A stretch of DNA of 64,000 nucleotides from assembly GCA_951406725.2 (NCBI GenBank), contig OX597821.1, forward strand, positions 18,662,001 through 18,726,000. The letters are read 5' to 3'. A program made the translations under genes and the position numbers. Origin of the DNA: Octopus vulgaris. Taxonomy: Eukaryota. The notes under the pieces are model-generated. The model was not told where the DNA came from. It worked only from the letters and a program-made list of their open reading frames with translations, and ran no database searches. Shown in pieces: positions 1,300 through 43,139 of the stretch (positions are counted from its first letter, which is position 1; every line of letters begins with the position of its first letter).

Positions 1300-1405
1300 T
1301 ATCTATCTATCTATCTATCTATCTATCTATCTATCTATCTATCTATCTATCTATCTATCTATCTATCTATCTATCTATCTATCTATCTATCTATCTATCT
1401 ATCTA
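1300..1405 (+). repeat. (TCTA)n microsatellite, 5' flank of Tx1 copy 1
   Basis: Perfect tetranucleotide array read directly. Confidence 0.97.
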
Positions 1406-1603
1406 CGGACGTGCTGTCACTTCGGCTCCGAAGGTAATCGTTTATTTTGACTATTTATAGCACAATTTTTGTGTACATTTTTGTAAATAAGGTGTGTAAG
1501 GCACCCAACTTTCGTTTGAGTGCTTTTCCAAGGGGGGAATTCGCCCCTAGGGGCAGTTTCAACCCTATTTAATTTGTGTAATTTTCTTCTCGACATTTTG
1601 AAA

Positions 1604-3441
1604 ATGTCGAGAAATTGTATTGTAGAACGCTGGTCGCGTTCCTTTATCGACTAAAATTTTCCTAGTCTGGAAACGCTAGGAGAAGAAAAAAAGAACACAT
1701 ACACGCAAAGTGCAAACCTGAATGACGTGGCAGTAAACGCTGCAATCACTTGCGATAACAGCACTGTCACCACCACCACTAACAACAACAACAACGAGAC
1801 TACAACTGCTACCACCACCGCCTCCGCCACCACCACAACCGCCACCGCTACCTCATCCACTACCTCAACTACCAACAACAATAACAATGACAACAAGAAT
1901 AACAACAATTGCGCCACCATTTCGACATCTGCTGCCACGACTGTCTCTTCTGCCACTGACACCACCGCCAACACCACCAACAAAAACAACAATAACAACA
2001 ACAACAATTCCGTTCAGACCTTGTTTACTCCAACACCAAGAACTGAAGGGAATAAACAAAAGACTGTGACCACCAAACAAATTGACAAAAGCTGCTCGAA
2101 CACAGGAACAAACTATGCAAGTAATTTTCCACCCCTTCCTACTTGCACAATCAAACCAAATACACCGATTTTACCAACTGCAGCCAACAACAACATCACC
2201 ACCAGCAACAGCAATAACAAAACAACAACAAATTTCGCCGAGGCGATAAAAGAAAAAAAGACAACAGTATATTTTACTGCACAGCAGATAAAAGATACGA
2301 AAATTTTAATAACGGAAGTAGATGATATAGTAAAAATAAACATACCACAAGAAATATTAGACAATGAAAAAAAAAGAACAATTATATATAAAATAATTAA
2401 TAAGAAAACAAAAGGTCCAGAGAAGGCTAACACAAGCAACATCGAAAAATGCTTGAAACCCATCTGGAACTACAAAGAGTATGTGACCTGGTGGAACAAG
2501 TTCGCACACATACAAGTGGTCTTCCACACTGAAGAGTTAGCAAAACGTTTCTCAACGCTAACTCTTCATTCAGATGAGCTACAACTAACACCAAGCTATC
2601 GTGGACAGAAAGTGACTAAGATCACTTTAAACAATGTCCCAAAAATAGCGAACAATCTATGGCTAGTAAAGGCCTTATGTGTGGAAATGGAAGATTTCAC
2701 AATTTTAGAAACTACGGTCACGGAACACAAAAACTGGGTGGGAAAAAAAGTAGAATTTCTACTACACATAAACCAAGATGACATAAAGAAAATACCCACC
2801 CAGATATGTGTATCAGAAGACCACAAGTTGTATGTGGTCGTCGATGGCAGAAGACCACGTTGCTACATATGCGGTAGTGAGCAACATCTAAAAACAGATT
2901 GCAAATATGCCGCAAGAAAACAACAGCAACAACAACAGCAGCCGGAAAAAACAAAAAAGCCAGCTTTACTACCCACACCACCATTTGTACAAACAGGACT
3001 AATTACAGAAAATCAAAAAAAACAAACCTCACCAACCAAACAACCACATCAACTGCACCAAGAACAGAAGCAACACCAACAACAACCACCAAGAATAAAC
3101 CAACTCCCAAACCAAGGACATCTGCCAAAAAGACACTCATCGAAAATGAAGAAACAATTACTACTCCAAATCCCCACAAAATTGACACCCCAAACAACAC
3201 AACAATACCTACAATCACTCACACACAAAATACCCACACCCCACCTCCAAAACCGCATACACCACAACCTAACGCTCACCAACCAACACCAACAACAAAA
3301 TCAACACGGTCTACAATAGACCCCAATATTTTCCCTCTCCCAAGCTCTGATTCCTCTGATTTGTCATTAGACGAAGAAGACACAGAAGATTGGCAAATAG
3401 CCACAGGGGGAAGAAGAAAAAGGGGAAAGAAAATAAAATAA
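1604..3441 (+). pseudogene. Tx1 ORF1 (gag-like nucleic-acid binding protein), disrupted
   Basis: ATG at 1604 is in frame with ORF 1727..3319 but has a TAA at 1652. Contains a Thr/Asn low-complexity N-terminus and the knuckle CYICGSEQHLKTDC. A probable frameshift in the A-run near 3015 leads into the acidic/basic segment DEEDTEDWQIATGGRRKRGKK; the original ORF may have extended towards 3880. Confidence 0.8.
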
Positions 3442-3883
3442 AAAATAAACAAAGCAGGAAGATTCACCACTCCCGAAACAAAAACATCCACAGAAAACAA
3501 ACACATCATCACAATCACACCATCATCAAACCCCCCAACAATGTTGACAGCCATAAACACAAACAACCACGACCTAATGGAACACATTAGGTCAAACACC
3601 AACATAACTGAAAACGACATAAAAACAAATAACGCACAACACCACCACAACACATCAAAATAATACACGTAACACAGAACACATACAGCACCATGAAATC
3701 TCTTTACCCTGATGCAGTAGGGAGATTTCAAAAATATTCATCAAAGAAACTATATAAAAACCTCATGGAAGAAGACTGTGAGGTGAAAAACAAAGGACTT
3801 TCGGACAACAAGCAACCTTTTCTCTCTCTCTTTCCTTTTTTGCACTTTCTTTTCGTGTGTAAAACACAATTTTTTATCGGAAC

Positions 3884-42400: not shown

Positions 42401-42465
42401 GATGGGTGAATGTAGCAAGGATGGCACGTATGAGTGACGAAGCCACCTTGAGCATAATCCTATGA
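39424..42465 (+). pseudogene. Tx1 ORF2 (partial APE, RT, zinc finger) with a single stop
   Basis: ORFs 39424..40239 and 40273..42465 are in one frame, separated by TGA at 40237. Motifs SPGLDG, LDQSKAFDRV, QGCPLS, YVDD, CPRC..H...C. Confidence 0.93.
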
Positions 42466-42922
42466 ATCCAGAAATTGAAAACAGAGGGTTACCCACTTGC
42501 AAACAAATGTGGTAACATATAACAATATTGACCAAGGTTACCATGGTCTTTTTCGTAGGCTTTTCTTCCCACGGATAAACCTTACTTGCTTTCCCCTTTA
42601 CACCATATATCATAACACTGTGATACACGATCCCTATTAATCGTTTATTTTTCCTCTTCCCCTTTTTCCCCTTTTTTCTTCTTTTTTCATTTCTCTTTTC
42701 TTTTGTTCCTTTTCCTTTCCCTCTTTTTTTATTTTTATTTTTTTATTTTTTATTTTATTTTTTTTTGTTCTTTTCTTCCCTTTTACGATACCTCTTGATC
42801 GAAAACCTACGCCACCCCTTTTTTTGTTTCTTTTGTTTTTTGTTTTTTTCATCCCCCAAAAGAAAAGCTCTACCTTGTAACTTGTCCCATCTGTGTGCAG
42901 CCCTGTGTGGCCAATAAAGAAA
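39424..42922 (+). mobile_element. Tx1-like element copy 3, 5'-truncated within the APE domain, inside (TCTA)n
   Basis: Colinear with copy 1 from position 4268. (TCTA)n lies at 39334-39423 and 42923-43103. Ends AATAAAGAAA without a poly(A) tail. Confidence 0.95.
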
Positions 42923-43139
42923 TCTATCTATCTATCTATCTATCTATCTATCTATCTATCTATCTATCTATCTATCTATCTATCTATCTATCTATCTATC
43001 TATCTATCTATCTATATATCTATCTATCTATCTATCTATCTATCTATCTATCTATCTATCTATCTATCTATCTATCTATCTATCTATCTATCTATCTATC
43101 TATTTGTTTGCCTGTCTAGCTATGCATACTTTAGTGTTT

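Follow-up and report, generated by a model that had tools for sequence, protein, structure and literature searches.

Several non-LTR retrotransposons insert into microsatellites, and how APE-type elements recognize such repeats is described in part of PMC3812793 as poorly understood. Within the Tx1 group, Kibi and Koshi of teleost fish and crocodilian families found in (TTCC)n and (TTTC)n show microsatellite-specific insertion (PMC4494074), and the non-LTR elements Waldo, MinoAg1, Dong and Togen target ACAY, AC, TAA and TG repeats, respectively (PMC3812793, PMC4640811). The microsatellite targets recorded in the relevant passages of these three papers are TC, TTC, TTCC, TTTC, AC, ACAY, TAA and TG (PMC4494074, PMC3812793, PMC4640811), and neither GATA nor TATC appears among those listed in the passages of PMC3812793 and PMC4640811. 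Here we describe an octopus family located in (TATC)n arrays, which read (GATA)n on the other strand. It resembles Kibi, Koshi and the crocodilian families in being an APE-type, Tx1-like element with a microsatellite target, but is set apart by the target itself: (TC)n, (TTC)n, (TTCC)n and (TTTC)n have a purine and a pyrimidine strand, whereas the octopus family occupies a mixed tetranucleotide, in a mollusc. Being in (TATC)n, it does not share the (TC)n or (TTC)n target that defines Kibi and Koshi, and it differs from Waldo, MinoAg1, Dong and Togen in both lineage and repeat unit. A search of the open-access full-text literature found no LINE that targets GATA or TATC; entries in Repbase and Dfam may already record the preference. 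A 2026 annotation of Octopus vulgaris counts 80 L1-Tx1 families in total, 13 of them recently active, with targets unnamed in the sections available (PMC13282606); Tx1 is included among mollusc clades in PMC10294476 and did not come up in a term search of PMC9115989. We regard GATA as a well-supported new target for a known type of microsatellite-targeting Tx1 element, accompanied by an apparent and unexpected radiation of sister specificities.

The window, a stretch of 64,000 nucleotides from a 2.8-Gb genome, contains three copies of the family, each with a (TATC)n array on either side, as read on the sense strand of the element; all of the copies and arrays described here are on the + strand. 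Copy 1 (1406-7593) is a near full-length, older member of subfamily A without the last 18 nt of that subfamily's terminus, and is preceded by an array of 26.5 units at 100% (1300-1405) and followed by another at 7594-7715. Its ORF1 (1604-3441) is frameshifted, carries one CX2CX4HX4C knuckle at 2861-2902 and gave no family match in a Pfam search, while two stops and a frameshift toward the end disrupt its ORF2 (3884-7317), which encodes an APE endonuclease, a reverse transcriptase (RT) and a zf-RVT domain. Copy 2 (36842-37059) belongs to subfamily B and consists of the 3' UTR only, with a complete terminus; a compound array (36620-36841) lies 5' of it, and an array in the family's fixed phase (37060-37139) lies 3' of it. 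Copy 3 (39424-42922), also of subfamily B, is truncated at its 5' end within the endonuclease domain, retains RT and zf-RVT in an open frame at 40240-42465, and is flanked by arrays at 39334-39425 and 42922-43103. These observations bear out an earlier note on this DNA, which had described three insertions with (TCTA)n on both sides in one orientation. Identity is 83.5% over 3,168 aligned bp between copies 1 and 3, and 90.5% over 222 aligned bp between copies 2 and 3. Perfect runs in the window number 41 for TA, 18 for ACAT, 13 for AC and 13 for AGAT, and perfect arrays cover 1.48% (TA), 0.54% (AAT), 0.49% (AGAT), 0.46% (ACAT) and 0.44% (AC) of a 200-kb background. By that coverage, of the repeats (TA)n, (CA)n and (TACA)n named in the earlier note, only (TA)n is commoner than (GATA)n, which contradicts the earlier statement that (CA)n and (TACA)n are far more abundant. 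Likewise, the statement that no copy lies in (TA)n does not extend to the genome, where a few copies do sit in (TA)n or unique DNA.

We searched the whole genome for exact matches to the 3' terminus of each subfamily. The 27-nt subfamily B terminus, taken from copies 2 and 3, has 2,334 matches, 1,605 of which are followed directly by the nine bases TTATCTATC; the subfamily A terminus, that of copy 1, has 285 matches, with TTATCTATC directly after it in 231. Reversed-pattern controls for these searches produced 0 matches. Thousands of GATA loci in the octopus are split by insertions, which is relevant to the use of microsatellite markers. For the 5' junctions, we used 89 of the first 90 subfamily B places listed, all on contig 1 and taken in order of position rather than score; the one left out, L030, has arrays on both sides. 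Under a strict rule that requires three perfect units near the junction, a script found an array 5' of 74 of the 89 copies, 3' of 62, on both sides of 56 and on neither side of 9. Two unresolved copies were read by eye and have 5' arrays, giving totals of 76 (5'), 62 (3'), 57 (both) and 8 (neither), so that 81 of 89 copies have an array on at least one side. In the script count, before the two by-eye additions, 18 copies had an array only at 5' and 6 only at 3'. Arrays on the opposite strand were found at none of the 5' junctions and at one 3' junction of the 89 copies. These copies span 35-6,400 bp and have many distinct 5' breakpoints, and their median length of 303 bp indicates independent truncation points.

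Random windows satisfied the same array rule in 504 of 79,400 cases (0.63%). GATA-array residence is far above chance, and the 81 of 89 array-flanked copies lie well above the threshold, over 20% of flanks, given for Tx1 target preference in part of PMC4494074. As a control we used a CR1-like LINE with 2,570 exact termini in the genome by pattern search. This LINE has its own TAAC tail on the 3' side in 29/30 cases and on the 5' side in 0/24 resolved cases, and a GATA array in 0/24, as compared with 74/89 for the GATA family (Fisher p 1e-14). The control LINE is represented in the window itself by a fragment (51931-53762, + strand) whose 514-aa RT frame is open and which ends in a (TAAC)n tail. 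The earlier note had named TCTA at the 3' end only, with random 5' flanks, as the pattern that would speak against a target; what we observed was a 5' array in 76 of 89 copies. The phase of the 3' junction is fixed in subfamilies that differ in their last bases (94/112, 56/59, 39/40 and 4/4). Across contigs of four sequencing runs, the GATA repeat also continues past the terminus in one independent run, X15, and the consensus is mixed in another.

A protein search returned many copies with equal scores and open frames. Twenty copies taken from this search carry an ORF2 of 1,145 aa that is intact in each, at 99.3-100% identity, indicating that the family is young; of these, 18 have a 5' array and all 20 have a 3' array. 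A 5' array is also present in 28 of 30 older full-length copies of subfamily A. The earlier note had proposed that the preference is old, which stands, but the family has been recently active as well. The heptamer CCATCTA precedes the apparent start of the element in 12 of the 30 full-length A copies, versus 8 of 1,241 such heptamers inside arrays, and since it is common to these copies, the true 5' end probably lies about 7 nt before position 1406. The 5' end of the element itself is thus similar to the target sequence. A full-length copy matched no family in Rfam, and the fold of the 3' end was not better than that of shuffled sequences (z -0.30). One copy, L127 (G000:C1:59969499-59976625), has an inverted 5' segment of the kind expected from twin priming, and its 5' end is still flanked by (ATCT)20.

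Copies of the family also cluster. Among the first 100 subfamily A termini listed, 27 have another within 10 kb, versus 0.2% at random. Four clusters consist of copies from several subfamilies arranged head to tail with (TATC)n between them, and in these trains arrays reach hundreds of bases; the trains at G000:C1:60394001-60434000 and C1:71618001-71658000 extend over 30-40 kb and have long (TATC)n spacers. Each insertion would leave target sequence on both of its sides, so that copies would be expected to pile up head to tail. Many units of the trains have distinct breakpoints, while some have a repeated breakpoint, which points to duplications or assembly errors; exact repeats occur among the units, and one train adjoins an assembly gap.

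The flanks are imperfect enough to be read in 16 of 180 resolved copies, some of these 16 being chance matches inside arrays rather than true duplications; in most copies, pure arrays mask the duplication and any RNA-derived units. In the clear cases, the 3' flank duplicates DNA beside the 5' end, with a length of 8-16 bp (32 bp in one) and a TAT start. Duplications without an added unit measure 8 bp in L191, 9-11 bp in L060, 11 bp in L104, 12 bp in L296, 15 bp in L142 and 15-16 bp in L039. There is neither a poly(A) nor a repeat tail in the DNA copies, and no TATC tail was seen among the readable off-array copies. Given that the off-array duplications start with TAT and add no repeat unit, the array is the target rather than a tail. 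We rejected an element-encoded tail on the basis of the 5' arrays (76/89), the control LINE (0/24) and the tailless off-array copies; in repeat annotation, a consensus would falsely show a TATC tail. L039 and L110 are located in (TA)n. In compound arrays, a few copies abut stretches of (TC)n. L060, L191 and L142 are inserted at just one or two TATC units; a few off-array copies (L116, L117 and L145) have no target-site duplication. The presence of some copies in (TA)n indicates that specificity is strong but not absolute. In background DNA, the share of TATC motif sites found near an array rises from 17% for 4-mers to 63% for 6-mers and 94% for 8-mers, and the 91% of copies (81/89) that are linked to arrays would fit an effective motif of about 7-8 bp.

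Taken as sequence evidence, these data show an L1-group, Tx1-like family that is strand- and phase-specific within (TATC)n/(GATA)n, and make it likely that the cause is an APE endonuclease whose nick on the GATA strand falls at a recognition motif of some 7-8 bp. The first nick would probably fall on the GATA strand at a position set by the endonuclease. Target-primed reverse transcription is established for the L1 group. In the octopus family, the APE would cut next to an ATA, on its 3' side in the GATA strand; this nick would prime reverse transcription, which would start at the exact 3' end of the element, and a staggered second nick would yield the target-site duplication. For full-length copies, the target-like 5' heptamer may aid joining. 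The 8 array-free copies among the 89, some of them with no duplication, weigh against this reading, and an empty site was nowhere directly observed. A target of this kind is relevant to targeted-insertion tools, GATA being a common and mostly harmless repeat.

The target might instead be set mainly by RNA, with a weakly selective endonuclease (cutting at ATA, for example) and a read-through (UAUC)n transcript that pairs with the nicked GATA strand. An AATAAA lies just upstream of the terminus, at 6-7 nt; transcripts might therefore extend into the array and include UAUC, and such a tail would perpetuate itself, every donor copy having an array downstream. L1 priming needs about 10 nt of pairing between RNA and target, according to part of PMC4014453, and the off-array sites have just TAT in common. 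However, with a long UAUC tail the primer should be able to pair at any unit, and extra units would be expected; these are present in 0/6 informative copies at off-array or imperfect-array sites. Subfamilies that differ in their last bases keep the same fixed junction phase, and RNA pairing could not sense the 5' side, where arrays are commoner. We therefore consider this explanation unlikely, and under endonuclease-set targeting the pairing of a few read-through bases with the primer may help but would not determine where insertion occurs.

Still less probable is that the element seeds its arrays, inserting at short TATC motifs that later grow by slippage. The insertions at one or two units (L060, L191 and L142) and the length of the arrays within trains could be read in this way, but copies that are 99.3-100% identical already sit in long, often interrupted arrays, element-free arrays are common (4/7 array loci in the window), and short motifs outside arrays would otherwise receive most insertions. 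We give hardly any weight to unselective insertion followed by survival in GATA arrays, or to arrays that combine an encoded tail with assembly artefacts. The trains with a repeated 5' breakpoint, one of them at an assembly gap, suggest that clustering is partly duplication or misassembly, but strand and phase are strict, a control LINE of similar copy number (2,570) is in GATA arrays in 0/24 cases, the off-array copies are tailless, and run X15 contigs have the GATA repeat past the terminus. The 89-copy junction census, the control LINE and the off-array duplications largely refute this explanation.

The protein sequences place the family in the L1 group. ORF2 matches the Pfam families APE (PF03372), RT (PF00078) and zf-RVT (PF13966), and these domains, together with 5' truncations, a 5' inversion and target-site duplications, are those of an APE-type non-LTR retrotransposon. 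The closest solved structure is L1 ORF2p (204 bits over 850 residues, versus 71 bits for R2). An endonuclease search matched L1-EN and listed no TRAS1 or R1 endonuclease at E<0.1, and the catalytic APE residues align with those of L1-EN; RT identity to the CR1-like element of the window is 26%. As compared with human L1, the GATA family has a hairpin loop of equal length (9 residues) but no poly(A) tail, a CCHC ORF1, a zf-RVT end and a far narrower target. ORF1s with RRM and zf-CCHC are consistent with Tx1, as stated in part of PMC5203782, and the CX2CX4HX4C knuckle at window position 2861 is of the CCHC type expected of a Tx1 ORF1. We refer to the family as Tx1-like: the protein searches retrieved no named Tx1 protein, and the nearest named protein is from Argonauta hians (70% identity). 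In an RT tree of 34 rows, a subset of 107 candidates thinned of near-duplicates and with no true L1 row, unnamed elements recognized by their target (U2, 5S) stood in for Tx1. The four GATA-targeting subfamilies form one clade (99/99), which falls in a larger group (100/99) that also includes the Argonauta protein and, from the same genome, two sister families; the sister relation of this lineage to the group that holds the U2 elements has support of 93/90, which is below the star threshold and not firm.

Three GATA endonuclease types, about 81% identical, have in common the hairpin loop W[ST]NR[IV]GSSRS and a 2-residue loop insertion, and two aligned sisters with other targets have the loop WSNNDGS[LR]RS and no such insertion. 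The two inserted residues align immediately ahead of Lys70 of L1, a residue in contact with DNA on the upstream side of the nick (PMC8565326, in part). In stringent elements, swapping the endonuclease exchanges the target (PMC1919474, PMC4014453), whereas specificity did not move with loops grafted into L1-EN (PMC1950540, PMC8565326), according to the portions of these papers that deal with them. Given the failed grafts, the few lineages and their shared ancestry, the correlation between loop and target is weak.

The targets of sister families in the same genome are different. One such family, at 57% identity across ORF2, is represented by 16 matching termini in the genome, of which 5 adjoin the first bases of U2, with a duplication of about 17-18 bp, and 11 adjoin TCATCG motifs, mostly in other repeats; one of the 5 reaches U2 by way of a tandem copy's duplicated U2 start. 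These U2 5'-end insertions (G000:C3:20812000-20833300, L458-L460; C23:43310000-43315700, L462-L463) occupy a site that differs from those of Keno and Utopia. In a young sister family (L491-L494), (TC)n, a Kibi-like target, follows the 3' end in 4/4 copies; this was seen on 3' sides only, and the (TC)n may be a tail rather than a target. Two more young sister families with intact frames (L483-L490) each have their own fixed sequence on the 3' side in 4/4, and their tandem copies show duplications of about 18-20 bp; in one of them, tandem trains have copies about 5.28 kb apart and the target starts with TATCTAC. We tentatively suggest, short of favoring it outright, that cephalopods harbor an undescribed and recently active Tx1-like radiation in which endonucleases about 57-80% identical each use another short target, namely (GATA)n, (TC)n, the 5' end of U2 snRNA and at least 3 motifs in other repeats; as part of the same tentative reading, the GATA branch would provide the first known case of a LINE that targets a GATA microsatellite, and a TATC core is perhaps common with the Keno site. 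One genome with young, intact elements that have close endonucleases and different targets permits direct tests of what sets the target, and such a radiation, if real, would be a natural library for mapping changes in APE specificity.

Among distant relatives in metagenomes (80 loci; best segment 24-45% identical), some occupy the Keno site in U2, where they have a 15-bp duplication, and others adjoin 5S rRNA at their 3' ends, as does Mutsu, the Keno and Mutsu target sites being as named in parts of PMC4494074, PMC4640811 and PMC3706591. Readable Keno-like (U2) and Mutsu-like (5S) junctions are present in metagenome contigs at L345, L348, L351, L353, L354, L358 and L361. Except for one 4-unit run at a contig start, no GATA-array flank was found at the 80 loci. 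The best-scoring distant relatives with a readable target are those in the U2 Keno site, at 40% RT identity to the GATA family. The Keno site also begins with TATCT, which may be chance, and the 3' ends of the U2 elements resemble those of the GATA family, but the two form separate clades with a long branch. Origin of the GATA family from Keno by relaxed specificity is suggested by the shared TATCT, but the tree gives a sister relation alone, and the Keno site was interrupted in 0/30 U2 copies examined, from 75 U2 matches in the genome. An abundant, short SINE-like repeat (L155, L157, L159, L102, L103 and L316) carries the 3' terminal sequence of the GATA family outside GATA arrays and may be mobilized by another member of the radiation.
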